A DNA stretch of 64,000 nucleotides from Squalus acanthias (lineage: Eukaryota), in the NCBI GenBank assembly GCA_030390025.1, contig JASTWF010000338.1, positions 186,001 to 250,000 of the forward strand, given 5' to 3'. Under the pieces are notes generated by a model. The model was not told where the DNA came from, made no database searches, and saw only the letters and a program-made list of their open reading frames with translations. Of this stretch, positions 23,516 through 39,478 are shown one piece after another; position 1 is the first letter of the stretch, and each line of letters opens with the position of its first letter. The position numbers and the translations under genes were made by a program.

Positions 23516-25805
23516 ACAACAACAACTTCTATTTATATTTATATAGCATCTTTAACGTAGTAAAACGTCCCAAGGCACTTCACAGGAGCGTTACAAAACA
23601 AAATTTAACACCGAGCCACATAAGGAGATATTAGAGCAGATGACCAAATCCTTGGTCAGAGGTAGGTTATAAGGAGGTCTTAAAGAAGGAAAGAGAGGTT
23701 AGAGAGGCGGAGAGGTTTAGGGAGGGAATTCCAGAACTTAGGGCCTTGGCAGCTGAAGGCACAGACAGGAATGGTGCAGCGATTAAAATCAGGGAGGCTT
23801 AAGATGCCAGAATTAGAGGAGTGCAGATAACCCGGGGTGTTGTGGGGCTGGAGGAGATTACAGAGAGAGGGAGGGGCGAGGCCATGAAGGGATTTGAAAA
23901 CAAGGAACAGAACTTTAAAATTGAGGCATTGCTTAACCGGGAGCCAATGTAGGTCAGCGTGCACAGGGGTGCTGGGTGAACGGGACTTGGTGCAAGTTAG
24001 GACACGGGCAGCAGAGTTTTGGATGACCTCAAGTTTACGGAGGGTAGAACCTGGGAGGCCGGCCAGGAGTGCATTGGAATAGTCAAATCTAGAGGTAGCA
24101 AAGGCATGGATGAGGGTTTCAGCAGCAGATGAGCTGAGGTAAGGGTGGAGTCGGGTGATGTTCCGGAGGTGGAAATAGGCGGTCTTAGTGAAGGCGGGGA
24201 TATGTGGTCAGATGGTCATTTCGGGTCAAATGTGACACCTAGGTTGCGAACAGTCTGGTTCAGCCTCAGACAGTTGCCAGGGAGAGGGATGGAGTCGGTG
24301 ACTATGGAATAGGGTTTGTCGCGGGGACCGAAGACAATGGCTTCGGTCTTCCCAATATTTAGTTGGAGGAAATTTCTTCTCATCCAGTAGTGGATGTCGG
24401 ATAAGCAGCCTGAAAACTTGGCGACATGGAAGGGTCAAGAGAGGTGGTGGTGAGGTAGAGCTGGGTGTCGTTAGCGTATATGTGGAAACTGACATTGTGT
24501 TTTTGGATGATGTCACCGAGGGACAGCATGTAGATGGGAAATAGGAGGAAGCCAAGGATAGATCCTTGGGAGACACCAGAGGTAACGGTGTGGGAGCCGG
24601 AAGAGAAGCCATTGGAGGTGATTCACTGGCTACGATCATGTAGATAAGAATGGAACCAGGCGAGTGCAGTCCCACCAAGCTGGACGCCGGTGGAGGCTTT
24701 GGAGGAGGATGGTGTGGTTAACCGTGTCAAATGCTGCAGACAGGTCGAGAAGGGCGAGGAGGAATCATTTACCTTTGTCACAGTCACATATGATGTCATT
24801 TGTGACTTTGATAAGAGCCGTTTTGGTACTGTGGCAGGGGGGGAAATCTGATTGGAGGGATTCAAACATGGAGTTCCGGGAAAGATGGGTACGGATTTGT
24901 GAGGTGACGATACGTTCAAGGACTTTGGAGAGGAAAGGGAGGTTGGAGATGGGCCGTAGTTTGCAAGGGCAGAGGGGTCAAGGGTTGGTTTTTTGAGGAG
25001 TGGGTAATGAAGGCTGATTTGAAGGAGAGGGGGACAGTACTGAGGAGAGAGAACTGTTTCCCATATCCGTTAACATTGGAGCCAGGAAGGGAAATTGGGT
25101 GGTCAGCAGTTTAGTGGGAATAGGGTTGAGGGAGCAGGAAGTGGGTCTCAGGATGAGCTCAGAGAGGGCGTGAGGAGAGGTCGGAGAGAAACTGAGGTGA
25201 ATTCAGGGCTAGGGCAGAGGGGAACCTTAGAGGAAGTTTGCCACGGTGGGCTAGGGGAAGAGAGGGAAGTGGCAGAGGCAGCTGATTGGATGGTCTCAAT
25301 CTTAATGACAAAGAAGCCAATGAGCTCCTCGCACTTGTTGTTAGAGGTGAGGGTGGAAGAGATAGGGGACAGGGGTTTAGGAAGATGGTTTGCAGTAGAG
25401 AAAAGAAGCCAGGGGTTATCTTTACATTCCAGAATGATCCTGGAATAGTGAGCAATTTTGGCAGACGAGAGCAGGACCTGATAGTACTTTATGTGATCCA
25501 GCCAGATCTGGCGGTGAATGGCTAAACCAGTTGTCTGCCATATCCATTCAAGTCTGCATCCCTTGGACTTAAGGGAGTGGAGATGAGGGCATACCAGGGG
25601 GAATGGCCAGGGTGAGAGAGAGTAATGGTTTTAATGGGGACGAGGGCATGAAAGCTGGAGGTGGGGGTGTGGTTGAGCAGATCAGTAGCTGCAGAAATGC
25701 TGTGGTGAGTGGAGGACTAAAGGCTCGACAGTTGGGAGTTTGAAAGTGCAGTTGTAAGTGAATTGGGAGAGAGTTTTTTCCAGTGGCGGATTCAGAAGGA
25801 AGTAG
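23516..25805 (-). mobile_element. L2-like LINE ORF2 remnant
   Basis: Minus strand gives DLSAAFDTV, QGSILG, YANDTQLY and ADLHWLPV, with a CAA-repeat tail. Confidence 0.85.
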
Positions 25806-25930: not shown

Positions 25931-27594
25931 TGTAGAATTCGCAATTATCACGATTTGATTAATAAGGAGAAAACACAAAGTTTCGTTCAAACAGCTTTTA
26001 TTTCAGCAGAATGCTGTCAGGTTTAAATTGGACACAAGCAGCCTGTAAAATGGCCGCCGCACCGCGTGACAGAACATTCTAGACTTTTTAACAGGCAGAC
26101 AAGATGGCGTTCCAATACACATTTTTGCAAGATCGATAACGATTCAGCACAGTGAAGATAATACCCGAGACATTATGGGTTTGCAGTATAAACATAGATA
26201 CTGAAATCGGTCTCCCAGGTACAAAGGAAAGCCATTGTACCGAGTAATCAAGGGCCCATCCAAAGGACATTAATATGTAAACTCCCAACGGCTCTACGAT
26301 GAGAGAGCCGTTAGCAGGTAGTTATACAGGACACTTGGAAGCCCCAAACCCCTCCAGGGAGAACACCGACCGATTTAGCAATGGGAGAAGTATTAACAGG
26401 TACTCAAACATTCATGAGTAGCCCCGAAACCCATTAAGAACGGAGATCACCCATACAAGACATTTGGGCGCCAAACCCTAAACAAAAGAATGGACATTAT
26501 AGTTGGGCGGGAAACGGAAGATTTTTGCACTATAATTGCAGGCCCCAAACCGTCCATTCGCTCTCTTGACTCTTGTTCTTGATCCTGCATTCGCTCGCTT
26601 GCTCCTGTGTTTTATCCGGTCGATTCGTAACCTCGTGGCTGCTCCTGTGTAAAAGACTGTTGAACTTTCTGATCCGTTCGGATCTACCTCGTGTCGCGTA
26701 ACGAAGACCTATGTTGGTAACTGGCAGCGGAACCAAAGGCCCGAGATGAGATGAGATGAGATGAGATGAGAGGAGAAGAGAAGAAGACCATATCCATCGC
26801 CACGGTCAGTAAATCCCGACCGCGCCTGTAGGTCGATCAGCCAAGTCTTCTCAACAGGAAGTTTTCTTCTTTAAACTTCTAACAAGACATATTGCATCAA
26901 TGATAACTGGACTGTGCAAACACATCGTATCAGTGATATTGACAACGGGGCTCCTCAACTAAACTGTGAAGTCAACCAACAGAGGTCTTCACTACAGCAG
27001 ACGGTCCAGCCTACTAGCCCGAGCAGCAGAAGCCAGTAAACAAGTGGGATCAGGAGATCTCCTGACCGACACGTGGGTGCTGCGGTGAAAAAACATCCGA
27101 TCAGCTATTCGGAATTTCTCCGAGTTATTACGAGTGGTGAGCATGAGTCTCGAGATCCTACGAAGCTAGTTTAGGATAGATATTGATAGGGGAGGGTTTA
27201 AAGATTAAGGATATTTGTAATGTGTGCCCTATTTACGTCGTGCCGTTCGTTCCTCGTTTCCCTAAGAGTGATTATAACCGTTTGTAAGATTGTACTGTCA
27301 TTAATCTGTGCGTATGACATGTATTTCATAATTTTAAGTATCATGCAATAAAGATTTTCCATTTCGTACCGTTCAAACCAAGTCTACATGAGTTTTATCT
27401 CCATTACTGCTCTCGCATCTAAGTCCAGTGTCTAGAACCGTAAGGGAGAGTGATTCGAACCACTCACAGGTGTGTCTAGTGTTCCCAGACTGGCTGGAGA
27501 CCAGGCCTAGACCCGCACTGACATACAGGCTGCACAGAGCCGCGTGAATCTCACAGGCTACGAGACACGCAGGGTCAGGAGAGAATCCCTTACA
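25931..27594 (+). repeat. 5' LTR (1664 bp)
   Basis: Direct repeat of 37026-38689 (offset 11095); no differences seen by eye. Confidence 0.97.
26505..26540 (+). promoter_or_regulatory. Putative LTR core promoter (GC box, ETS-like CGGAAG, TATA-like TATAAT)
   Basis: GGGCGGG 26505-26511, CGGAAG 26515-26520, TATAAT 26531-26536, followed by a pyrimidine-rich stretch. Confidence 0.55.
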
Positions 27595-27598
27595 GAAA

Positions 27599-29410
27599 AT
27601 GGCGACCGCGGCAGGACACTGGCAGCGAGAGGGTAGTGTGTTAGATTTTGGAATGACTGTACGAAATGTTATGCAGGAAAAGATAGCGGATTATGTGTTT
27701 GGAAAGGTTAATCTAACTAAAAAGTGGATAAGCGAATTGTTAGCGGATAAGAGCCCACTAGAGGCAGCTGAAAGGTGGACTGATAGTAAGGAGCATAAAA
27801 AGGCAGTTGAGAAAGCAGTCTGGCTTATGTGCTACAAAAGGCAGGTTCAGATTTCAAACCAGACCAATACAGCGCTAACAGCTCGAATCAAGCATTTAGA
27901 GGAGGAAATGGAGGAGAAGGTTTCTGGAGGGGAGGTGCTCATTAAGAGTTTAAATGAGTTACGCCAGGAAAGCCAGGAAGTCTCCAGTTACCTTAAAACA
28001 AGGGTAGAGTATCTCGAGTGCCAGATCACTGAAGCAAAATTGAACGAGAGTAGGATGAAGGAAAGATGTAACCGCCAAGCTGCCCAGATAAGAACTCAAG
28101 AAGAGAGCTTAATGGGGGTTAGGTCGGCGTATAAGTTGGCCCTTGAGGATAAGTTTCAGGGAGCCGACCATAGCGCCTGCCAAAAAGAGATAGAGAGCCT
28201 CAAAAAGGCCGTGAATAATGCGAACGGCATGGTGTGCCTTATCAATCCGTCGGCGCGCCAGCCGCTAGTAAATGAGAGATTTAGAAATTCCCCACCAAGT
28301 AAAGCAGAAGAAGTAGTAGCCACTGCGCCCTCCGCGCCACCCAGCTATTCAGAAACCTGGGTTAGGGAGGAAGCAACGGAAGAAACAAAAGAGCCCGTTG
28401 AAAAGGAAGTAGAAAAGGGATCGTTGTATCCAGTAACGGGGATTAAAAGGGGCCCAAGCAGAAACGGTGGGGAAGAACCGGGGGATCTCCTCGGACAGCT
28501 GGTGTTGCCTCACAGTTCACATCAGCTGAGAGCCATGATAAACCACGTAAGGAAGCTGACCGAGATAGACGACCCTTCCGTACATTTCAGGGAAGTTGAG
28601 CAAGCCGCAGCCATTAACGGCTGCGATGATGGGGAGACAGCAAAAATGCTGCTGTTCTCATTAGACAGCTCGGTCCTTCAGTGTCTCTCAGGCGAGAGCA
28701 AGAGGGGAAATAAAAGTTATGAGGAATTGAAAAATGAGGTCCTAGAAGTAGTGGGAGCGAACGACGGAGGTCCGTTTGCTAGAGTGGGACAGACAGTGCA
28801 GATGGAGGGAGAACCCCCGAAGGTTTTTGCCGACAGGCTGTGGCCAGTATATGAGCGCAGCTGTCTAGGTGCGCCCGAGCGCGAAGATGTGGAAGGCGCC
28901 GCTTTAATTCATTGGCTTAGGTGCATAATAGCCAACAGTTTACCAGCCGTTAGAGAGCAGGCAAAAGCCTGGTTCGATCCCAATGACCTCAACCTTACGG
29001 AAGAGTCGGTCCTGAATCGACTCACGTTAGGTTACCGTAACATAAGGGGTATGACGACACGTCCCTTTAAGGGAAGAGTACATGAGGTACGACCCGCAGC
29101 CCCAGCTCAGAGAGAGTGGCATCAAGAGGGTAATCGCGCCCCACAGGCAAGTAATGCCTGTTACGGGTGTGGGAAGACAGGGCACTGGCGCAAGCACTGC
29201 AGGAACCCTTGGAAGGATTCCAAGGATAAAAATCCCGCGGTCCGAGCCCAGGCGCCTGTCCCGCCTAAGGAAGCAAAGGCACCCACCTCCCCCGACGACC
29301 TCGAAGCAGTGTTAGGAGTCATGCGCAAGATGGTTTTGAATGCGCGTGGACAGGTGGCGGTCGCAACCGGCCCCGTAGGTGCCGCAGGACCGTCTAATAG
29401 TGCCCCATGA
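27599..29410 (+). CDS. gag: Gag polyprotein (603 aa): N-terminal coiled coil, PSAP/PPSY late domains, capsid-like region, CCHC knuckle
   Basis: Heptad-rich region, TAPSAPPSY, CYGCGKTGHWRKHC; position directly after the LTR. The start codon could be a downstream ATG. Confidence 0.9.
   Translation: MATAAGHWQREGSVLDFGMTVRNVMQEKIADYVFGKVNLTKKWISELLADKSPLEAAERWTDSKEHKKAVEKAVWLMCYKRQVQISNQTNTALTARIKHLEEEMEEKVSGGEVLIKSLNELRQESQEVSSYLKTRVEYLECQITEAKLNESRMKERCNRQAAQIRTQEESLMGVRSAYKLALEDKFQGADHSACQKEIESLKKAVNNANGMVCLINPSARQPLVNERFRNSPPSKAEEVVATAPSAPPSYSETWVREEATEETKEPVEKEVEKGSLYPVTGIKRGPSRNGGEEPGDLLGQLVLPHSSHQLRAMINHVRKLTEIDDPSVHFREVEQAAAINGCDDGETAKMLLFSLDSSVLQCLSGESKRGNKSYEELKNEVLEVVGANDGGPFARVGQTVQMEGEPPKVFADRLWPVYERSCLGAPEREDVEGAALIHWLRCIIANSLPAVREQAKAWFDPNDLNLTEESVLNRLTLGYRNIRGMTTRPFKGRVHEVRPAAPAQREWHQEGNRAPQASNACYGCGKTGHWRKHCRNPWKDSKDKNPAVRAQAPVPPKEAKAPTSPDDLEAVLGVMRKMVLNARGQVAVATGPVGAAGPSNSAP
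27600..27617 (+). promoter_or_regulatory. Putative primer-binding site (tRNA-Ser-like, imperfect)
   Basis: TGGCGACCGCGGCAGGAC, 5 nt after the LTR. Shares TGGCG....CGGCAGGA with the complement of the vertebrate tRNA-Ser 3' end. Confidence 0.6.
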
Positions 29411-32400
29411 CTAGAACCAGCACAGCCCGTCTACCTGTGTCCGCTCAGCTATGATGCGTGGAGGCGACCTGTGGTGGAGATGGAGGTAGAGAAACAGAAG
29501 GGCAGTTATTTGTTGGATACGGGAGCTTCTTGCACCATAATCCATACAGATGACCCTTTTGACTCGCCGCTATCTACCAAGGTCCCATTCACGCTAGCAG
29601 GGTTCACAGGGAAAGAACAGGCTGGCACGTTTTCCCTCCCGCTATCCATTCGTTTAGGAACACTTCGCCTTAAGTGGAAGTGTATACTGATGGCATGGCA
29701 AAAGGGGGGTGGAAGAGGTATTCTCGGGTCCGATCTCCTAGCGGGACACGGGATCCTCGTGGACCTCAGAAATCACTGTCTCTGGGGGGCTAAAGGTGAA
29801 AAAGGCGAGGTAATGGTAATTCAAGGGGAGGAAGAAACAGGGGTCCTGTGTACCGTACAGCCATCCGGAGGCTACGACCTCAGGCTTATGGTCGCAGATG
29901 TCCCAACGGACATGCAAACGTACGTGACAGATAATATGCACGCGTTTGCAACCCACAAGCACGATTGTGGGAGGGTGGTCGGGTTTGAGGTCAGCGTAGA
30001 TGGGGACCCCATGACCCGACCCCAAAAGCAGTATAACTTCCCCAAAGAAGCAGAACCCGATATGGAGGCAGCAATGTCTTCCTTGGTGCAGCAGGGCGTG
30101 TTGAGGCCGATAGCCACACACGTGAACTCCCCATTATGGCCGGTTAGGAAGCCGGATAATTCGTGGAGAGCCACGGTGGACTACAGAGTCCTCAAGAGTA
30201 ACATTCCCGCCTGCGCGCCCACAGTAGCAGCAGTTGCTGACCTAATAGGGAGCATCCCAGCGTCCGCGACCACGTTCACGGTGCTGGATATCTCGAACGG
30301 TTTTTGGTCCATCCCGCTGCGGCGAGAGGACCAGTACAAGTTTGCCTTTACGTTTAAAGGGCAACAGTACACGTGGAACTGTTTGCCACAGGGTTTCCAC
30401 AATAGCCCCAGTATTTTTCACCAGTGTATGGCAGGAAGTTTAAAGGAGTTTAGTCAGCCCAATCAGATAGTACAGTATGTGGATGATTTGCTCCTATTTA
30501 CGGACTCAAGGGAGGAGCACGGACCACTACTGGACGAGTTATTGGAGCTGTTAGCGAGAAAGGGTTTTAAAGTAAACCCAAAGAAAGCACGTATCGGTCA
30601 GCAGGAAGTAAAATTCCTGGGGCTGACCCTACGCGCTGGGGAAAGAGCCATAGACAAAGCAAGGAGGGAGTCGGTGCAAGAATTACCGATTCCCAACAAC
30701 GTAAGGGGTGTGAGGTCCTTCTTGGGACTGACCGGTTACTGCAGGGATTTTATCGAAGATTATGCGGCCACAGCGGCGCCGCTCCTCCGACTCCTCCATA
30801 AGGGGGTGGAGTGGCTTTGGGACGAGGGCTGCCAAGCAGCCTTCGAGAAGTTAAAAAGGGATCTGCAGACCGCGCCAGCCTTAGGGGCCATAGATGGGGG
30901 GAAGGAGTTTTTCCTGGAGGTAGCTGCCAGCGGGGACAGCTTAAGCGCCGTACTGCTCCAAGAGCGTCACGGCAAGCTGAGGCCGGTTGTCTATTCATCC
31001 AGGGTATTAACGGATGTGGAGAGAAGTTTTTCCAATTGCGAAAGGCACCTTTTAGCCACGCATTGGGCTGTGAAAAGATCAGCGATCTTCACAGGGCTCT
31101 CTCCCATCACTCTCCTCACACATCACACACCAACTAAGATGCTTCTGGATGGGAGGATTAAAGACGGGACCGTAAGCAGCGCACGCATTGCGCGTTGGAC
31201 CCTTCTTCTCTCCCAGTTGGACATCAGAGTAAAAGGTCTTTGCGAGCCCAGGCTTGCGGCCAATTTGGTATACCCCGGTACAGCCCACCGGTGTTCGGTG
31301 GAAGGGGTGTGGGACGTCAACATAGGTTTACGGGCCGGGATACATCCCACTGGGCGCGAGATTTATGTTGATGGGTCTAGCACAGTGTCTGCTGGCGAGC
31401 GACTCACAGGGTGTGGAGTTTATGACCCTGCGGCAGACCTTGCCCTGGCGATCAAGCTCCCTAGCACCATGAGCGCGCAGCAGGCTGAGCTGTCTGCCGT
31501 GGTGTACGTGGTGACCCACCCAGACATTTTCCCAACCCCATACACGATTTGCTCGGACAGTATGTTCACCTGCAATTCGTGTACGGAATACCTGGCCATT
31601 TGGTCCCGCCGCGGATACACCTCCGCGGACGGGCGACCTTTAACGGTGAAGCCCTTGCTGGAAAAGATTTTAGCAGCCGCAGTAGGGGAGGAAGGGGAGA
31701 TTTTCATCCATAAGGTGAAAGCTCACTCCTCCACAGAGCCCCGTGGGGAGGGCAACCGGCAGGCGGATGCGCTAGCCAGGGAGGGTGCCCGCGACGGCAC
31801 TTTCTGGAACCCCTATAGGACCGGACCCATAGCAGCGGTCCGAGGCGGGGACGGGAATACCGGGAACACCAGGGTAGCATTGCCCCTAGACCTTAAGACC
31901 GTCCAAGCCCAGGATCCCGCCCTAAAAGCAGTCCTAAAAACGATTGCTGAGGGGAGGCAGGTAGAAGGTCCGTACAGTACGGCAACCCTCTCAGTTAAGG
32001 AAGGCATGCTGTTCCGCGGGGAGCAGTGGGTTGTGCCGCAGCAGCACAGGAGGGAATTCCTCCAGTTGGCTCACGAGGGACCAGGGGCAGGGCACCCCGG
32101 GCCCGAGGTTACCTGGCAACGGGTAGAGCAAGCGGGATGGTGGCCGGGGCTCAGGGAACAAGTCCGCGAGTTCTGTGCAAACTGTCTTGTGTGCGCTGCA
32201 AATAACCCAGACCCCCAGAAAAGGAAGGTGCCCATGGGACACGTAAGAAGGGTAGAGGGACCATGGCAGTCGATACAGATCGACTATATAGGACCCCTGC
32301 CCACCACCCAGGGAGGTTATAAGTACTGCCTCGTCCTGGTGGATGTGTTTTCCAAGTGGGTGGAAGCCTTCCCTTGTCGAACAGCTACGGCACTGGGTAC

Positions 32401-33934
32401 AGCAAAAATCTTGGTCCGGGAAGTGTTCTCGCGGTGGGGACTCCCCCGTTTTGTGGAGTCAGACCAAGGGAGTCATTTCACCGGCCAGGTGATGCAGAAC
32501 ACCCTCATGCTTTTGGGCATTGAAGGGAAGTGGCACGTAGCACACAATCCCCAGTCATCCGGGATTGTCGAACGTATGAACCGGACCCTGAAGGAGAAAT
32601 TGAGGAAAGAGACTAGGAACTCGCCCCAAAAATGGGCGGAAGTTCTGCCTTTAGTCCTCATGGGGGTCCGGGCCAGTCAGTCAAAAAGTACGGGGTACTC
32701 CCCGCACGAGGTAATGACCGGCAGGCTCATGCGAACCCCCACCCATGTGCTAGCCCCGGTGCTCACTGAGGGTCAGCTTCAAGAGATCAGCAGGGACAAG
32801 TTCGCCCAAACTCTCTTGGAGCGCCTGAAGCAAGTTTATGAGCAAGCGGCTGGGAACATGGGAAGGCAGCATCAGGGCAATCGCTTGTTGCTGGAACCCC
32901 GCAAAACGCGGGAATGGGAAGTAGGAGACCAGGTCATGGTCAGAAACTACGCCAGAGTAGGGAGTCTGGAACCACTGTATATGGGACCCTACAACATTGT
33001 AGACAAGGCGAGTCCCATGGTTTACGCCGTAAAAGTACCTCGGCGCACTAAGTGGTTCCACATAAACCAATGTAAACTGTACCAGCCGGGTGCGCAGGGG
33101 AAAACTACAGGGGTAAATCCCGCCAATGGGAAAACACAGCCCCAGGTAGGACCACAAGGCACACAGGCAGGCGTAGCAGCTTGCATCAGGGGAAGGGACA
33201 TCCCGGACGATCATGCAGCGTTTTTCTGGAGTTGGGGGTTAGATGACGAAGAACCCAGGGTACCCTGGTCAGATGAGGATAGTGCAGATGAGCATAGTGA
33301 TGATGACGGGTGGTTCCTGAGGAACGGTCTGGGAGGATTGGGGCCGATAGGTAGAGATCCACACGGGGTGGACACACAAGCTGCAGGTCCCGACAACAGG
33401 AGGGAGGAGCTAGAGGAGGCAGGGCCAGCCGCTATAGGAGCACAGAGAGTACCCATGTGGTTCCCAGAGGTGTGGCCGCCCGCTTTGAACGTCCAGTCCT
33501 CAGGGGAGGCAGAGATCACGAGTGAAGGGCCGCCTGCTGGGCCGAGCAGGGCGGAGCCACGAAATGCCAGCCCCGAGGTTAGGGAGGCGGAGTCAGCGGA
33601 GGCGGAGCCGGCGACTGTGATGAAACCCCAGGTCATCCCGTTGGAGGTCTCGGAACCCGGTCCGTCCGTCACGGAACCCCCGCCCATAGCAACTCCCCGT
33701 AGGTCAAGCAGAGAACCCCAGCCCAGGAGGATGTGGTCATGTCCCCAGACTGCCCCAAGGCGTAAAATTCAGGTTAAGATAACCCGGGTAGAGACAGGCC
33801 ACATCGCAGCAGTAACAGGCTGCGGCAGATCAGAGGAAAGGGTCAGCGCAGCAACAGGCTGCGGCAGATCAGAGGGAAGGGTCAGTGCCCTCCCACCGTC
33901 GGGAAGAGCTCGCAGCAGCCTTCTCAGAATTTAA
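29411..33934 (+). CDS. pol: Pol (protease, RT, tether, RNase H, integrase, C-terminal extension), in frame with gag
   Basis: LLDTGAS, LPQGFHNSP, YVDD, YVDGS..AQQAEL..SDS..GNRQAD, HHCC, QIDY..SDQG..VERMN and GPY. Open from 29411 directly after the gag TGA. Confidence 0.95.
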   Translation, partial: LEPAQPVYLCPLSYDAWRRPVVEMEVEKQKGSYLLDTGASCTIIHTDDPFDSPLSTKVPFTLAGFTGKEQAGTFSLPLSIRLGTLRLKWKCILMAWQKGGGRGILGSDLLAGHGILVDLRNHCLWGAKGEKGEVMVIQGEEETGVLCTVQPSGGYDLRLMVADVPTDMQTYVTDNMHAFATHKHDCGRVVGFEVSVDGDPMTRPQKQYNFPKEAEPDMEAAMSSLVQQGVLRPIATHVNSPLWPVRKPDNSWRATVDYRVLKSNIPACAPTVAAVADLIGSIPASATTFTVLDISNGFWSIPLRREDQYKFAFTFKGQQYTWNCLPQGFHNSPSIFHQCMAGSLKEFSQPNQIVQYVDDLLLFTDSREEHGPLLDELLELLARKGFKVNPKKARIGQQEVKFLGLTLRAGERAIDKARRESVQELPIPNNVRGVRSFLGLTGYCRDFIEDYAATAAPLLRLLHKGVEWLWDEGCQAAFEKLKRDLQTAPALGAIDGGKEFFLEVAASGDSLSAVLLQERHGKLRPVVYSSRVLTDVERSFSNCERHLLATHWAVKRSAIFTGLSPITLLTHHTPTKMLLDGRIKDGTVSSARIARWTLLLSQLDIRVKGLCEPRLAANLVYPGTAHRCSVEGVWDVNIGLRAGIHPTGREIYVDGSSTVSAGERLTGCGVYDPAADLALAIKLPSTMSAQQAELSAVVYVVTHPDIFPTPYTICSDSMFTCNSCTEYLAIWSRRGYTSADGRPLTVKPLLEKILAAAVGEEGEIFIHKVKAHSSTEPRGEGNRQADALAREGARDGTFWNPYRTGPIAAVRGGDGNTGNTRVALPLDLKTVQAQDPALKAVLKTIAEGRQVEGPYSTATLSVKEGMLFRGEQWVVPQQHRREFLQLAHEGPGAGHPGPEVTWQRVEQAGWWPGLREQVREFCANCLVCAANNPDPQKRKVPMGHVRRVEGPWQSIQIDYIGPLPTTQGGYKYCLVLVDVFSKWVEAFPCRTATALGTAKILVREVFSRWGLPRFVESDQGSHFTGQVMQNTLMLLGIEGKWHVAHNPQSSGIVERMNRTLKEKLRKETRNSPQKWAEVLPLVLMGVRASQSKSTGYSPHEVMTGRLMRTPTHVLAPVLTEGQLQEISRDKFAQTLLERLKQVYEQAAGNMGRQHQGNRLLLEPRKTREWEVGDQVMVRNYARVGSLEPLYMGPYNIVDKASPMVYAVKVPRRTKWFHINQCKLYQPGAQGKTTGVNPANGKTQPQVGPQGTQAGVAACIRGRDIPDDHAAFFWSWGLDDEEPRVPWSDEDSADEHSDDDGWFLRNGLGGLGPIGRDPHGVDTQAAGPDNRREELEEAGPAAIGAQRVPMWFPEVWPPALNVQSSGEAEITSEGPPAGPSRAEPRNASPEVREAESAEAEPATVMKPQVIPLEVSEPGPSVTEPPPIATPRRSSREPQPRRMWSCPQTAPRRKIQVKITRVETGHIAAVTGCGRSEERVSAATGCGRSEGRVSALPPSGRARSSLLRI

Positions 33935-33978
33935 AGGGGCCGCCCTGAGAACGGGCGGCACTGTAAAGTTATTAGTTT

Positions 33979-34065
33979 AAGGTTTTAAGTTTATAGTTCA
34001 AGGTTAAGGTTTTAAGTTTATAGTTCAAGGTTAAGTTTTAAGTTTATTAGTTCAAGGTTAAGTTT
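33979..34065 (+). repeat. Three tandem ~27-bp T-rich repeats in the pol-env spacer
   Basis: AAGGTTTTAAGTTTATAGTTCAAGGTT x3. Confidence 0.85.
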
Positions 34066-34252
34066 GTAGTGTTTTAACAGATAACGATAAAATGGTGGGA
34101 GTTTTAAGGCTAGGTTTTAGAGGAAGTCTATTCAGCAAACGTTGAAGTTTACGTGAGGCGAGGTCAGGGGACCCGCTCACCTTTCACAAAAGCCAGAGAC
34201 TTTTTGCGAGGCTGGCTACCTCATTCTATCTGATCACAGGAACCAAGGAAGG

Positions 34253-36604
34253 ATGGAACGACTTATAGTATTGCTCGTGGCAATCGGATGTGGATTGGCC
34301 TATCGAGGCCACACCAAGGATGTCGTGGTGTTTGGATGTTCCGGGGACACGGCCCCCATCGCGGTGGATGGGACCGGAAGACGGAAGGCAGAGGGGACCA
34401 GCACCTATTTCCACAAGGGAAGGTGGCCAGGATGGCTGGGAACGAACTCAACGGAGTATTCCAGCACATCGGGGTTCGCCTACAAAGAGACTTCTTTAAT
34501 GTGCCCCAAAGTACGGATCATCGCACCCAGGATCAGCGTCACCGTCGGCAAACGGATTTGTTTGACCTGTAGTGGGGATGTCCCATTGAGCCGATGGTGG
34601 TGGCTGCGAAAGCTGAGCAAAACTATGAGGAACTCTTCGGTCGAGTGGGAACGACTGGGTAATAATACCCATCGGACAATTACGGGGACAAACGGACAAG
34701 TGAAAGTCTGTTGGGACAAATGGTGGGAACCGGATGAGGGGATTTATGTTTGTATGTGGGGGTCAAAGTACGTTTGCCCCAAAGGCATCTCCATATTTTT
34801 TATTAATCAGTGGCAGGATAACGGACAGGGGATGAGGTGGGATGCGAGCACCAGGGGGTGCGGAGCCCCATTCTCCCCGATCCCAGTAAATGCCACTGAG
34901 CTCATTACGCGCCCACGCAAAGCCCCGCCCACGATTCCGGTGGTTCTAACTGAGGAAGAAGGGTGCCCTAAAACTAGTAAGGGACCCGGGAACGGTTTGG
35001 TACTGGTCCCCACAGACCAGATACTATTTCAGGGGGTACATTACGCGGTGGCCTCGGTGATTTTAAATCTCACTGAGGTACGGTTACCAGAGTGGTGCCC
35101 CAAAAAGACGGAACAGTTGTATCAGGTCCTGTTGACCAAGATGTTCAGACAATTTTACGAGTTTGATTTTGCAGAAATTGATAAGGCAAGTTTGTATACC
35201 GCACCGCAGGAAGTTTTGGATCAAGTAGGGAGGCAAAGAAGGGGTTTGGTGAACGATGCGTTCACTGCTTTTAATACAGGGACATCTGTGGTCAACGCTC
35301 TAGACAGTGTGGAGCTGCAGACCCAGATTAATGGTTTAAAAACACAGTTAAAAGACATTCTAACAGATGAGAATAAAGTGGTAGGGTCAGGTCTGCATGA
35401 GGACCAAGCCATGACTCTCCATTTAAAGGAGATCATAGCAGAGCTGGAGAAACATGCGCGTACGGTAAATGCCCTGATCAGGGAAGATCGGAATGCATCC
35501 GATCAAGCTGCGCAGAACGAGGTGTGCGTGCTTTACGGGGCGTGGTTACTAGGCGAGGGCCGCAGTAATTTGGAGGATTTAAAACAAGGTTTGGTTCCGT
35601 CCTGGATAAGTAACAAACACCTGCGGGCGCTCCACCCTTTTCAGAACGCATTAAGTCCGTGCCAGCTCAGGCTAGCTTCAGAAGCTTACCCAGTCCCCGT
35701 GGACTGCGGACGTTCAAACCATACTATTATGGGAATAGTATTACGCATGCCGGTTTTGGGCAACACAGCAAAGCCCGCCCCGGTATATCGGGTAGAGAAC
35801 ATTGGTGTCATTCAGGGGGGAGCCCACATTCGTTATGCAGCGGTTCCACCTTACGTCATCCGCTGGGAGCAAACGATGACAGGTACAGATCTCTCTGGTT
35901 GTCGTGGCAGGGGAGCACACATAATACTGTGCCCCCAGCACTTGAATGCCTTTTTAACACCACAGTGCGGGTTCAGAACGGCTGGCGCCAAGTCCATGAA
36001 TTGCACCATGGAGGCAATGGCACAAGATCATGTGCCTCCGCAGGTAGCATACATCGGGGGTGGAACATATTGTGTTACCACTGCAGCGCAACACTACCAG
36101 CATGGAAACCGTAGCCGGTGTCCGGTGAGTGACAGCAGTTTCTGTTTTAAACCCAGGGCTGAAGTTCAAGTAGCACAACAGCGAATTATCCCAATCCCTG
36201 AACCATCCACTGTTCATCTCACAGTAAAAGAGAATTTCACCGACTTGCAGCGATTTGTCGCGCATTTTGGATACCTCATTCCCCCTCTCCCTGAGCATTT
36301 AACCAAACTTCTGAAAGCCGTCGCGGTATCACAGAAGCATTTCTATACGTTAGAGCAGAAAACTGTCGAAATTGGAACAGACATTTTGGACATAGTGGTT
36401 CCACCGTGGTGGAATCTGTTCACTAATATTGAAGTGCCCTCATGGGTCAGAATAGCCTCCCACATTTTAGTCGTCTGTCAAGTGTTTATTGTAGTGTACC
36501 TATTGTTCATACATTGTAAAAGAGACAAGCGCCTCACCAAGCATGAGAACACGGGAGAGTGGCGAGAACGTTACGTGCGCGTGCACGATGAGAGCACCGT
36601 GTAA
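34253..36604 (+). CDS. env: Envelope glycoprotein (783 aa): signal peptide, Ig-like domain, furin site, fusion-peptide/heptad region, Cys-rich region, TM
   Basis: MERLIVLLVAIGCGLA; RQRR|GLV at 35231-35242; heptad QINGLKTQLKDIL; TM HILVVCQVFIVVYLLFI; several NxS/T sites. No CKS-17 or CX6CC motif. Confidence 0.9.
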   Translation: MERLIVLLVAIGCGLAYRGHTKDVVVFGCSGDTAPIAVDGTGRRKAEGTSTYFHKGRWPGWLGTNSTEYSSTSGFAYKETSLMCPKVRIIAPRISVTVGKRICLTCSGDVPLSRWWWLRKLSKTMRNSSVEWERLGNNTHRTITGTNGQVKVCWDKWWEPDEGIYVCMWGSKYVCPKGISIFFINQWQDNGQGMRWDASTRGCGAPFSPIPVNATELITRPRKAPPTIPVVLTEEEGCPKTSKGPGNGLVLVPTDQILFQGVHYAVASVILNLTEVRLPEWCPKKTEQLYQVLLTKMFRQFYEFDFAEIDKASLYTAPQEVLDQVGRQRRGLVNDAFTAFNTGTSVVNALDSVELQTQINGLKTQLKDILTDENKVVGSGLHEDQAMTLHLKEIIAELEKHARTVNALIREDRNASDQAAQNEVCVLYGAWLLGEGRSNLEDLKQGLVPSWISNKHLRALHPFQNALSPCQLRLASEAYPVPVDCGRSNHTIMGIVLRMPVLGNTAKPAPVYRVENIGVIQGGAHIRYAAVPPYVIRWEQTMTGTDLSGCRGRGAHIILCPQHLNAFLTPQCGFRTAGAKSMNCTMEAMAQDHVPPQVAYIGGGTYCVTTAAQHYQHGNRSRCPVSDSSFCFKPRAEVQVAQQRIIPIPEPSTVHLTVKENFTDLQRFVAHFGYLIPPLPEHLTKLLKAVAVSQKHFYTLEQKTVEIGTDILDIVVPPWWNLFTNIEVPSWVRIASHILVVCQVFIVVYLLFIHCKRDKRLTKHENTGEWRERYVRVHDESTV

Positions 36605-37013
36605 TAGGAAAATGGCGTCACTCCCGCTCGCCACGTGCGCCGCGGAAGTTTGTACTCATTGTAAATACGTTGGAAACTCGATATGTTTAAGAGTTGGGAT
36701 TTGTTTATTTTGGTGATGGTGTTGATTGTGTGGTTTTGGGTTTTGTTTTTCCTTTCCCTGAATAAAAGACAAATATACAGGTGATGCGTGAGGTATCGGC
36801 CTGGTTACGCCGGGAAGGAAAACAAGTGGTGTAAGTTTAAGGGCAAATGATGCCTACGGTGATATAAAATGTGATTTTCTTGGGAAATAAGGACGACACA
36901 GAGACCCTAGTCAAGTTAAAATTTATGGGATTAATTTACTGGATTCGGAGTGAAATCGAGATAAGATTGCTCACCACTGAGATTTTGATACGATAAGCGG
37001 AGTTATTCGCATC

Positions 37014-37025
37014 AACAGGAGGGAC
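37014..37025 (+). promoter_or_regulatory. Polypurine tract
   Basis: AACAGGAGGGAC immediately before the 3' LTR. Confidence 0.7.
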
Positions 37026-38689
37026 TGTAGAATTCGCAATTATCACGATTTGATTAATAAGGAGAAAACACAAAGTTTCGTTCAAACAGCTTTTATTTCA
37101 GCAGAATGCTGTCAGGTTTAAATTGGACACAAGCAGCCTGTAAAATGGCCGCCGCACCGCGTGACAGAACATTCTAGACTTTTTAACAGGCAGACAAGAT
37201 GGCGTTCCAATACACATTTTTGCAAGATCGATAACGATTCAGCACAGTGAAGATAATACCCGAGACATTATGGGTTTGCAGTATAAACATAGATACTGAA
37301 ATCGGTCTCCCAGGTACAAAGGAAAGCCATTGTACCGAGTAATCAAGGGCCCATCCAAAGGACATTAATATGTAAACTCCCAACGGCTCTACGATGAGAG
37401 AGCCGTTAGCAGGTAGTTATACAGGACACTTGGAAGCCCCAAACCCCTCCAGGGAGAACACCGACCGATTTAGCAATGGGAGAAGTATTAACAGGTACTC
37501 AAACATTCATGAGTAGCCCCGAAACCCATTAAGAACGGAGATCACCCATACAAGACATTTGGGCGCCAAACCCTAAACAAAAGAATGGACATTATAGTTG
37601 GGCGGGAAACGGAAGATTTTTGCACTATAATTGCAGGCCCCAAACCGTCCATTCGCTCTCTTGACTCTTGTTCTTGATCCTGCATTCGCTCGCTTGCTCC
37701 TGTGTTTTATCCGGTCGATTCGTAACCTCGTGGCTGCTCCTGTGTAAAAGACTGTTGAACTTTCTGATCCGTTCGGATCTACCTCGTGTCGCGTAACGAA
37801 GACCTATGTTGGTAACTGGCAGCGGAACCAAAGGCCCGAGATGAGATGAGATGAGATGAGATGAGAGGAGAAGAGAAGAAGACCATATCCATCGCCACGG
37901 TCAGTAAATCCCGACCGCGCCTGTAGGTCGATCAGCCAAGTCTTCTCAACAGGAAGTTTTCTTCTTTAAACTTCTAACAAGACATATTGCATCAATGATA
38001 ACTGGACTGTGCAAACACATCGTATCAGTGATATTGACAACGGGGCTCCTCAACTAAACTGTGAAGTCAACCAACAGAGGTCTTCACTACAGCAGACGGT
38101 CCAGCCTACTAGCCCGAGCAGCAGAAGCCAGTAAACAAGTGGGATCAGGAGATCTCCTGACCGACACGTGGGTGCTGCGGTGAAAAAACATCCGATCAGC
38201 TATTCGGAATTTCTCCGAGTTATTACGAGTGGTGAGCATGAGTCTCGAGATCCTACGAAGCTAGTTTAGGATAGATATTGATAGGGGAGGGTTTAAAGAT
38301 TAAGGATATTTGTAATGTGTGCCCTATTTACGTCGTGCCGTTCGTTCCTCGTTTCCCTAAGAGTGATTATAACCGTTTGTAAGATTGTACTGTCATTAAT
38401 CTGTGCGTATGACATGTATTTCATAATTTTAAGTATCATGCAATAAAGATTTTCCATTTCGTACCGTTCAAACCAAGTCTACATGAGTTTTATCTCCATT
38501 ACTGCTCTCGCATCTAAGTCCAGTGTCTAGAACCGTAAGGGAGAGTGATTCGAACCACTCACAGGTGTGTCTAGTGTTCCCAGACTGGCTGGAGACCAGG
38601 CCTAGACCCGCACTGACATACAGGCTGCACAGAGCCGCGTGAATCTCACAGGCTACGAGACACGCAGGGTCAGGAGAGAATCCCTTACA
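37026..38689 (+). repeat. 3' LTR (1664 bp), AATAAA at 38442-38447
   Basis: Direct repeat of the 5' LTR, ending CCTTACA followed by the TSD. Confidence 0.97.
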
Positions 38690-39478
38690 CTCTCTCCATT
38701 TAAAAAATCATTTGCTTTTTTATTTTTCCCACCAAAGTGGATAACCTCACATTTTCCCACATTATACTCCATCTGCCAATTTTTTCCCCACTCACTTAAC
38801 CTATCTATATCCCATTGCAGACTCTTTGCCTCCTCCTCACAACTTGCTTTCCCACCTATCTTTGTATCATCAGCAAATTTGGCTACAGTACACTCAGTCC
38901 CTTCATCCAAGTCATTAATATAGATTGTAAATAGTTGAGGCCCCAGCACTGATCCCTGTGGCACCCCACTAGTTACAGTTTGCCAACCTGAAATTGACCC
39001 ATTTATCCCGACTCTCTGTTTTCTGTTAGTTAGCCAATCCTCTATCCATGCTAATATATTACCCCCAACCCCGTGAGCTCTTATCTTATGCAGTAACCTT
39101 TTATGTGGCACCTTATCGAATGCCTTCTGGAAATCCAAATACACTATATCTACTGGTTCCCCTTTATCCACCCTGCTCGTTACATCCTCAAAGAACTCTA
39201 GTAAATTTGACAAACACAATTTCCCTTTCATAAAACTATGTTGACTCTACTTGATTGTATTATGAATTTCTAAATGTCCTGCTATTACTTCCTTAATAAT
39301 AGATTCCAGCATTTTCCCAATGACAGATGTTAGGCTAACTGGCCTATAGTTTCCTGTTTTCTGTCTCCCTCCTTTCTTGAATAGAGGCGTTAAATTTGCG
39401 GTTTTTCAATCCGCTGGGACCTCTCCCGAATCCAGAGAATTTTGGTAGATAACAATCAACGCATCCACTATCTCTGCC
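38690..39478 (-). mobile_element. CR1 RT fragment, right part of the LINE split by the provirus
   Basis: ORF 39231-38653 with YLDFQKAFDKVPH, GVPQGSVLGP and FADD. Confidence 0.9.

Follow-up and report, generated by a model that had tools for sequence, protein, structure and literature searches.

Can the envelope protein (Env) of a retrovirus carry an immunoglobulin (Ig) domain ahead of its fusion machinery, and what would such a domain be for? The question is raised by a provirus of the cartilaginous fish Squalus acanthias, contained in a stretch of 64,000 nucleotides of contig JASTWF010000338.1 (positions 186,001 to 250,000, forward strand; GenBank assembly GCA_030390025.1). The whole of this stretch is called the window below, and its positions are counted from its first letter. 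The features of the provirus and of its env gene are collected in Table 1. An earlier note, made from the letters alone, had proposed that the N-terminal part of Env holds an Ig-like domain. Several lines of evidence, each of them weak, agree that amino acids (aa) 85-185 of Env very probably have an Ig-type fold, and the reading favoured here, which is considered reasonably probable, is that the Ig-centred N-terminal module is a receptor-binding add-on on an F-type class I fusion scaffold.

The residues on which the proposal was built can be read directly from the translation. Env aa 85-185 correspond exactly to positions 34505-34807 of the window, and within them lie the motifs ISVTVGK (94-100), LTC (104-106, with C106), WWW (115-117) and DEGIYVC (161-167, with C167). 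All the signature residues named in the earlier note are thereby confirmed in place, together with the spacing of 61 residues between the strand-B and strand-F cysteines (C106 and C167), for which the family expectation is about 55-75. A strand-C tryptophan some 10-15 residues past the first cysteine and a D-x-G-x-Y-x-C tyrosine corner mark the Ig superfamily (IgSF), and both are found here, the former as W115-117. C103 and C153, which the note had offered as a possible second pair, are both present in the domain, and the disulfide between them is a prediction. Two sequons, N127 and N137, also lie inside it.

At the level of sequence profiles, the Pfam family Ig_3 aligns with aa 88-167 over profile positions 5-74 of 78, with an E-value of 0.022 for the aa 80-190 piece and of 0.57 for the whole Env (11.2-15.7 bits). 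In an alignment of 18 sequences over Env aa 75-200 (named A2), whose members are 49-71% identical to the copy in the window, conservation is complete or at least 90% at C84, C103, C106, C153 and C167 and at most of the tryptophans, and a match to Ig_3 at E<=1 is obtained for 17 of the 18 (best 2.7e-4), with the register unchanged and the scores still below threshold. When Env is compared with the PDB by phmmer, four weak matches are obtained (E 1-3.4), led by a junction adhesion molecule (JAM; E 1) and an antibody light-chain variable domain (VL; E 1.3). The A2 profile, searched against 177,635 PDB sequences, gives eight matches at E<=10, half of them IgSF proteins, with the IgV domain of CRTAM at the top (E 0.0098 and 0.018, over 92 residues). 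Profile-profile alignment of A2 by hhalign with 16 host Ig_3 exons covers the 70 columns between strand A and the F-strand cysteine, and scores 28.8 (P 6e-5). This score is reached by none of 20 column shuffles (best 19.1) and the reversed alignment attains 11.0. Host V aligned with host Ig_3, which served as positive control, gives a score of 61.7 and a probability of 97.4%. Finally, the Atlas language-model features of the domain, at 0.78-0.79, are a lead only, with Ig families carried by eight of the ten rows listed.

Structural modelling of the domain points in the same direction. AlphaFold2, run on aa 75-200 with alignment A2, yields an all-beta model with nine strands and no helix (pLDDT 55.2, pTM 0.52). 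According to their titles, the best 50 rows of a Foldseek search of the PDB with this model are antibody, nanobody, shark VNAR, T-cell receptor or embigin entries (E 0.013-0.035, TM 0.34-0.50, probability 0.77-1.00). VIA-align, applied to 48,161 representative chains, places TREM-1 first (Z 7.0, root-mean-square deviation 2.9 A over 91 residues), followed by NKp44 (Z 6.7) and TREM2 (Z 6.5); 48 of its best 50 rows are Ig-type entries by title, and the matches cover model residues 14-109, equivalent to Env 88-183. In a fold search of BFVD, no row reaches E<=0.001, and the best 50 contain neither retroviral nor paramyxoviral proteins; the top rows (E 0.022-0.15) include cytomegalovirus Ig-like membrane proteins among unrelated phage proteins.

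The Ig-like domain belongs to the surface subunit, because it lies upstream of the furin-type motif RQRR (aa 327-330), and the Pro-rich linker that the earlier note had placed between domain and fusion module is there, as PRKAPPTIPVV at aa 221-231. Taken as a whole, Env has the order of parts of an F-type fusogen: signal peptide, small N-terminal subunit, furin site, fusion peptide, heptad repeat A (HRA), more than 200 aa of beta-rich sequence, heptad repeat B (HRB) and transmembrane (TM) segment, the heptads having been read by eye. Eleven cysteines fall within aa 425-631. The Atlas features of the scaffold, likewise a lead only, give 0.95 for the Gypsy/Baculo_F cluster and 0.93 for Fusion_gly clusters, with 197-207 of 256 features shared. 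It is on this order of parts and on the Atlas features that the F character of the scaffold is based. In the PDB, the best match of a fusion-module profile is a HERV-K chain (E 0.055), over the TM-proximal region. The Ig-like region was also considered as domain II of the F scaffold, a candidate ruled out by its position upstream of the cleavage site.

The relatives of this Env indicate that its N-terminal part is a separable unit. A phmmer search with the whole Env against 1.84 billion representative proteins gives 49 matches (E<=0.001), of which eight cover the N-terminal module, skate and sawshark sequences among them; no cellular IgSF protein is found among the 49, and all those covering aa 1-230 are env-type. 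The Ig-like module is not unique to this copy, as several endogenous retrovirus (ERV) lineages of the genome, the skate and the sawshark share it. For the distant full-length relatives P0012 (Mustelus), P0013 (Chiloscyllium), P0019 (Pelodytes), P0047 (Mantella) and P0035, the alignment with Env does not begin before about aa 221-237, at the conserved motif CPxxxxGPxxGL. In P0040 and P0048 (Latimeria), the signal peptide runs directly into the CPxxxxGP motif without any head, which argues that the N-terminal module is an add-on. A scan of IMG/VR with Env found no relative. In two sawshark proteins, P0003 (zinc finger ZFP2-like) and P0004 (Niban 1-like), env-derived stretches are fused to cellular sequence, and both are probably gene-model chimeras across ERV insertions.

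The heads of the other clades differ among themselves. P0012 and P0023 have a different, Cys-rich N-terminus without Ig signal. The N-terminus of P0035 matches V-set at E 0.0019 and gives weak PDB matches (E 0.15-0.84), 8 of the 13 being Ig proteins by name. P0013 matches Ig_3 and Ig_2 at E 0.1 and bears the UniRef name 'Ig-like domain-containing protein'. The frog Envs (P0019 and P0047) show a C...W...C pattern by eye, for which Pfam gives no support, and the profile of the two sequences has no Ig match in the PDB. An Ig hidden Markov model (HMM) of the Env family studied here, searched against 43 other proteins, matched only fragments of its own family, P0019 being the best of the remainder (E 0.07). 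The N-termini of P0013, P0019, P0035 and P0047 were not linked to it, and MAFFT produced no credible alignment of these four. At the sequence level, the heads of other clades are not detectably homologous to the head studied here.

According to the favoured reading, aa 85-185 would form a V/I-set-type IgSF beta-sandwich with the B-F disulfide C106-C167, the C-strand tryptophan and the tyrosine corner, and two extra disulfides, C103-C153 and C84-C175, would probably be added. This domain would be the core of an N-terminal add-on module of about 220 residues (aa 17-237). After removal of the signal peptide and predicted furin cleavage behind RQRR330, the Ig-centred module would remain attached to the surface subunit (aa 17-330) through a short Pro-rich tether. 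Binding of the module to a cell-surface receptor would then release the fusion subunit, and attachment and fusion would be combined in one protein. The position of the domain upstream of RQRR330, in the surface subunit, fits such a receptor-binding role.

A number of results weigh against this reading. The earlier note had proposed Pfam, structure prediction with Foldseek and a comparison with host Ig domains as checks. Ig_3 matches in register but at 11-16 bits, against a curated gathering cut-off of 30 bits that no member reaches, all Pfam scores being 11-20 bits. The model is all-beta with V-type neighbours, but its pLDDT of 55 is low and Foldseek finds nothing in the PDB at E<=0.001, the best value being 0.013. 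The host Ig_3 exons are aligned at the P-value given above, but with an hhalign probability of only 65%, and 26 host antigen-receptor V segments (of 30 fetched, three apparent duplicates and one with a stop having been left out) align over just 17 columns with a probability of 1.3%. Additionally, AlphaFold2 on aa 17-260 (11 sequences) gives an unusable model (pLDDT 33.1), VIA-align yields no Z of 8 or more, values of 7-8 being typical of models without a clear match, and the 18 members of A2 are not independent, given their identity to the window copy. On the side of the scaffold, PF00523 and PF12259 give no match for Env at E<=10, nor for the 28 sequences formed by Env and 27 relatives at E<=1, among which Pfam recognises no family of fusion proteins at all. 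Paramyxovirus F and loki Env were assumptions of the earlier note, and the fusion-module profile from the same 28 sequences finds no F, spike or foamy-virus Env chain in the PDB. As all sequence scores remain under the curated or usual significance line, the Ig fold is regarded as probable and not as proven. The most sceptical view would be that there is no autonomous domain, only chance motifs in a poorly ordered, Trp-rich region of the surface subunit, for which the low-confidence models (pLDDT 33 and 55) and E-values lying between 1e-4 and 1 could be quoted. This is very improbable in the face of six cysteines and several tryptophans conserved at 90% or more across 18 sequences, strong purifying selection, and the agreement of five kinds of search, in addition to the failure of all the shuffles to reach the hhalign score. 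It is also quite improbable that an old viral beta-sandwich converged on C...W...DxGxYxC with neither homology to cellular Ig domains nor host capture. The absence of cellular IgSF proteins from the phmmer matches, the sub-threshold profile scores, the lack of relation to host V segments by hhalign and the failure of the N-terminal modules of other clades' Envs to match the family HMM are compatible with convergence; the IgSF hallmarks are nevertheless complete and in the correct order and spacing, the alignments to Ig_3 and to host Ig_3 exons are full-length and in register, and the weak sequence matches over long alignments are all to IgSF proteins (JAM, VL, CRTAM).

A different kind of alternative accepts a real Ig fold and gives it a main role other than receptor binding, such as prefusion cap, glycan shield, superinfection interference, or mimicry of a host adhesion molecule or immune ligand. 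The fold evidence serves this alternative as well as the receptor-binding reading, and the two sequons in the domain would suit it. Selection bears on it too. In five pairwise comparisons between lineages, the proportion of synonymous differences (pS) is 0.72-0.77 and thus saturated, and that of nonsynonymous differences (pN) is 0.22-0.25 in the Ig region, 0.24-0.36 in the flanking N-terminal segments and 0.09-0.18 in the fusion core. The Ig region is under purifying selection between lineages, and its pN, far below pS, indicates that the module was retained by selection during virus diversification. The value for the domain below that of its flanks speaks for a role other than receptor binding, since receptor-contact domains are often the most variable, and so do its best viral structural neighbours, HCMV (human cytomegalovirus) UL6 (E 0.022) and a poxvirus CD200-like protein, weak as they are. 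These neighbours are, however, intermixed with unrelated phage proteins in BFVD, and neither phmmer nor hhalign found decoy-type similarity to a specific host ligand. The virus, moreover, is a retrovirus without any other attachment protein, and those relatives that lack the module could not do without one either. On balance, a main role other than receptor binding is unlikely, and a receptor-binding add-on remains the preferred explanation.

With regard to its origin, the capture of a host module suggested in the earlier note is unproven, as there is no cellular donor in the 49 phmmer matches and the similarity to host Ig exons is only remote; among the best-150 match lists of the fish's own genome, every match to the module is an ERV copy. 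A joint reading of head, scaffold and copies can be put forward as a tentative and somewhat doubtful proposal. Deep-branching vertebrate retroviruses with F-type Envs would swap N-terminal receptor-binding heads (none in coelacanth; Cys-rich and non-Ig in houndshark; IgSF in sharks, skates and perhaps frogs). An ancient acquisition from a host adhesion-type Ig gene would account for the IgSF head, and the Ig-headed form would still be spreading by reinfection here, a suggestion based on more than 100 near-identical proviruses that keep env open.

Several known systems offer points of comparison. In the class Ib model, receptor-binding modules are joined to a minimal F scaffold, either N-terminally or by insertion, and coronavirus spike and foamy-virus Env are both described as an F-type scaffold (domains I-III, HRA, HRB) with an added binding module, N-terminal in spike and inserted in foamy virus, where the receptor-binding domain (RBD) is given as a previously unidentified fold (PMC11468914). 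The same source assigns an IgSF fold to domain II of paramyxovirus F and foamy-virus Env (PMC11468914). The earlier note, in stating that an Ig domain is not a standard part of retroviral surface subunits (SU) or of paramyxovirus F, was for this reason too strong; what stands is that an extra, N-terminal IgSF domain is unusual. The arrangement described here resembles spike in that the add-on is N-terminal to the putative F-type scaffold and upstream of the furin site, and differs from both spike and foamy-virus Env in that the add-on comprises about 220 aa with an IgSF-type core. Neither phmmer nor profile searches of the PDB connected this Env with spike or foamy-virus Env chains. Gammaretroviral SU consists of an N-terminal beta-sandwich RBD followed by a proline-rich region and the remaining SU, and the order of parts is similar here. 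No gamma-type SU occurs among the PDB matches of Env or of the A2 profile, and unlike the short TM subunit of gammaretroviruses, the fusion subunit has long F-type heptad spacing.

Among cellular proteins, the Ig domains of CRTAM, JAM-A, TREM-1 and NKp44 have in common with the Env domain the B-F disulfide, the C-strand tryptophan and the tyrosine corner. The Env domain differs from cellular Ig domains in its low identity in structural alignments (12-19%), in its WWW C strand and WDKWW E strand and in up to two extra disulfides, and from these four also in belonging to a viral glycoprotein. Host-like Ig domains do exist in membrane proteins of large DNA viruses (HCMV RL11/UL6, poxvirus CD200-like and iridovirus Ig-like proteins), which are the best, non-significant, BFVD neighbours and which, unlike this Env, are not fusion proteins, judging by their names. 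The terms 'immunoglobulin' and 'Ig-like' are absent from the main text of the lokiretrovirus papers PMC7947760, PMC13709493, bioRxiv 10.1101/2023.10.26.564294 and 10.1101/2024.03.25.586437, as is 'immunoglobulin' from the main text of PMC9040795, and among the papers listed in a literature search none deals with an Ig domain in an Env of this type. The apparent novelty lies in the additional IgSF domain, which is N-terminal and can be recognised from its sequence; already flagged is one distant shark relative, P0013, in which an automatic database name marks an Ig-like domain.

As for the lineage of the virus, the Env of lokiretroviruses has a signal peptide, an RXKR-type site, a fusion peptide, a coiled coil and a TM segment, and is described as resembling the F protein of Mononegavirales (PMC7947760). 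The Env studied here has the same layout of parts, and its relatives occur in coelacanth and frogs, both of which are included among the lokiretrovirus hosts given there; in contrast to Loki-Str, for which a PF00523 match at 2.2e-7 was found (PMC7947760), it does not match this family. The words 'shark', 'cartilaginous' and 'Chondrichthyes' do not appear in the main text of that paper (PMC7947760). The pol gene contains two RNase H parts, RT_RNaseH_2 at pol 470-558 (tether) and RNase_H at pol 650-793, and this dual RNase H and the order gag-pol-env between long terminal repeats (LTRs), which serve to recognise lokiretroviruses, are both found. Canonical retroviruses likewise have a tether and an active RNase H and gag-pol-env between LTRs. 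Pfam matches in pol are RVT_1 (7e-35), RT_RNaseH_2 (2e-21), RNase_H (2e-19), Integrase_H2C2 (2e-17) and rve (6e-15). Its nearest PDB relatives are Ty3 (6e-71), a gamma-type reverse transcriptase (RT; 3e-69) and, for the integrase, that of PFV (7e-34), HIV RT being remote (about 1e-14). These distances are compatible with a lokiretrovirus placement and are not diagnostic of it.

The abundance of the provirus in the genome of its host speaks for recent activity. The 3.7 Gb of the fish's own genome contain 6335 candidates, the best 150 of which share 99-100% identity with aa 17-260, and in 125 of these best 150 the env frame is open over at least 789 codons. Intact genes, identical LTRs and a very high copy number suggest that an ERV with an env gene has multiplied on a large scale, and very recently, in a cartilaginous fish, and the fact that env stays open in so many young copies would, on general ERV biology, fit spread by reinfection. 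Older, partly broken lineages (L021-L050), in which the module is 49-61% identical (best 150 of 5829 candidates scored), are also numerous, and on this basis the genome preserves the traces of recurrent waves of these viruses. That the open reading frame (ORF) could be a host gene, co-opted and present in single copy, was ruled out, since it is part of a complete provirus that is one of many. In two sequencing runs whose status as RNA is a guess, the word depth of the contigs is higher over env than over gag-pol, and no splice joint was seen in them. About half of the sampled 31-letter words of env occur in 14 public runs (X1-X14) under six organism labels, with contigs 95-100% alike.

The remaining features of the provirus complete this picture. 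A 4-base repeat, CTCT, is found on both flanks of the LTR pair. Fragments of ORFs of the reverse-transcriptase type of long interspersed nuclear elements (LINE) lie on either side, at 38653-39231 (-) and 23680-24207 (-), so that the provirus sits in repeat-rich DNA. The CCHC knuckle of Gag gives only a weak Pfam match (E 0.31). The first third of Gag (27599-28300) is coiled-coil-like, with weak Pfam matches to Rab11-FIP3 (E 0.34) and Spc29 (E 0.52), and resembles in this the N-terminal coiled coil described for the Gag of zebrafish BHIKHARI (bioRxiv 10.1101/2024.03.25.586437). The gag TGA, at 29408-29410, is in frame with the downstream pol, and the continuation of pol in the gag frame after this codon suggests that Gag-Pol is made by read-through. 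Beyond the integrase, pol ends in an acidic, Pro-rich, low-complexity tail (33100-33934) with the near-repeat TGCGRSEERVSA / TGCGRSEGRVSA. In Env, neither the pre-Ig segment (aa 17-84; no match at E<=10, pLDDT below 35 in the aa 17-260 model) nor the post-Ig segment (aa 186-220) is matched in Pfam.

Table 1. Features of the provirus and of its env gene, in positions of the window.
Feature	Positions	Strand	Remarks
Provirus	25931-38689	+	gag, pol and env frames between two LTRs
5' LTR	25931-27594	+	1664 bp, TG...CA; ends TGTAG...TTACA; every base equal to 3' LTR
gag frame, stop to stop	27548-29410	+	closes with TGA
pol	29411-33934	+	protease, RT, tether-type RNase H, RNase H, integrase, long C-terminal tail
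env ORF	34253-36604	+	783 aa and stop
Signal peptide	34253-34300	+	aa 1-16; hydrophobic N-terminus MERLIVLLVAIGCGLA; predicted cleavage point
Pre-Ig segment	34301-34504	+	aa 17-84; GRWPGWLGxNST(xYSS) conserved across lineages
Ig-like domain	34505-34807	+	aa 85-185; structural matches cover aa 88-183
Post-Ig segment	34808-34912	+	aa 186-220; WQDxGxGxxWD, C203, NAT213; conserved across lineages
Pro-rich linker	34913-34963	+	aa 221-237; PRKAPPTIPVV at 221-231
Scaffold start common to all relatives	34964-35242	+	CPxxxxGPxxGL, aa 238 on, up to RQRR
Fusion subunit ectodomain	35243-36448	+	fusion peptide, long heptad region, Cys-rich beta region, membrane-proximal heptad region; putative sub-boundaries
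Transmembrane anchor	36449-36523	+	aa 733-757; Kyte-Doolittle windows >1.7 at 730-757
3' LTR	37026-38689	+	identical to 5' LTR; purine-rich tract immediately upstream

Paramyxoviruses divide attachment and fusion between two proteins. If the favoured reading is true, a third and very compact solution for attachment and fusion would stand beside these two-protein systems and the add-ons of coronaviruses and foamy viruses, and the protein would be a rare example of a class I fusogen that incorporates a recognition domain of host type. The proviral copies point to recent activity of an env-bearing retrovirus in cartilaginous fish, a host group that the main text on lokiretroviruses leaves unmentioned (PMC7947760). 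Once expressed, the module of some 100-220 aa may lead to the receptor used by a lineage of retroviruses about which little is known, and because it is present, absent or replaced among the relatives, this Env family would be a natural test bed for the gain and swap of binding heads.

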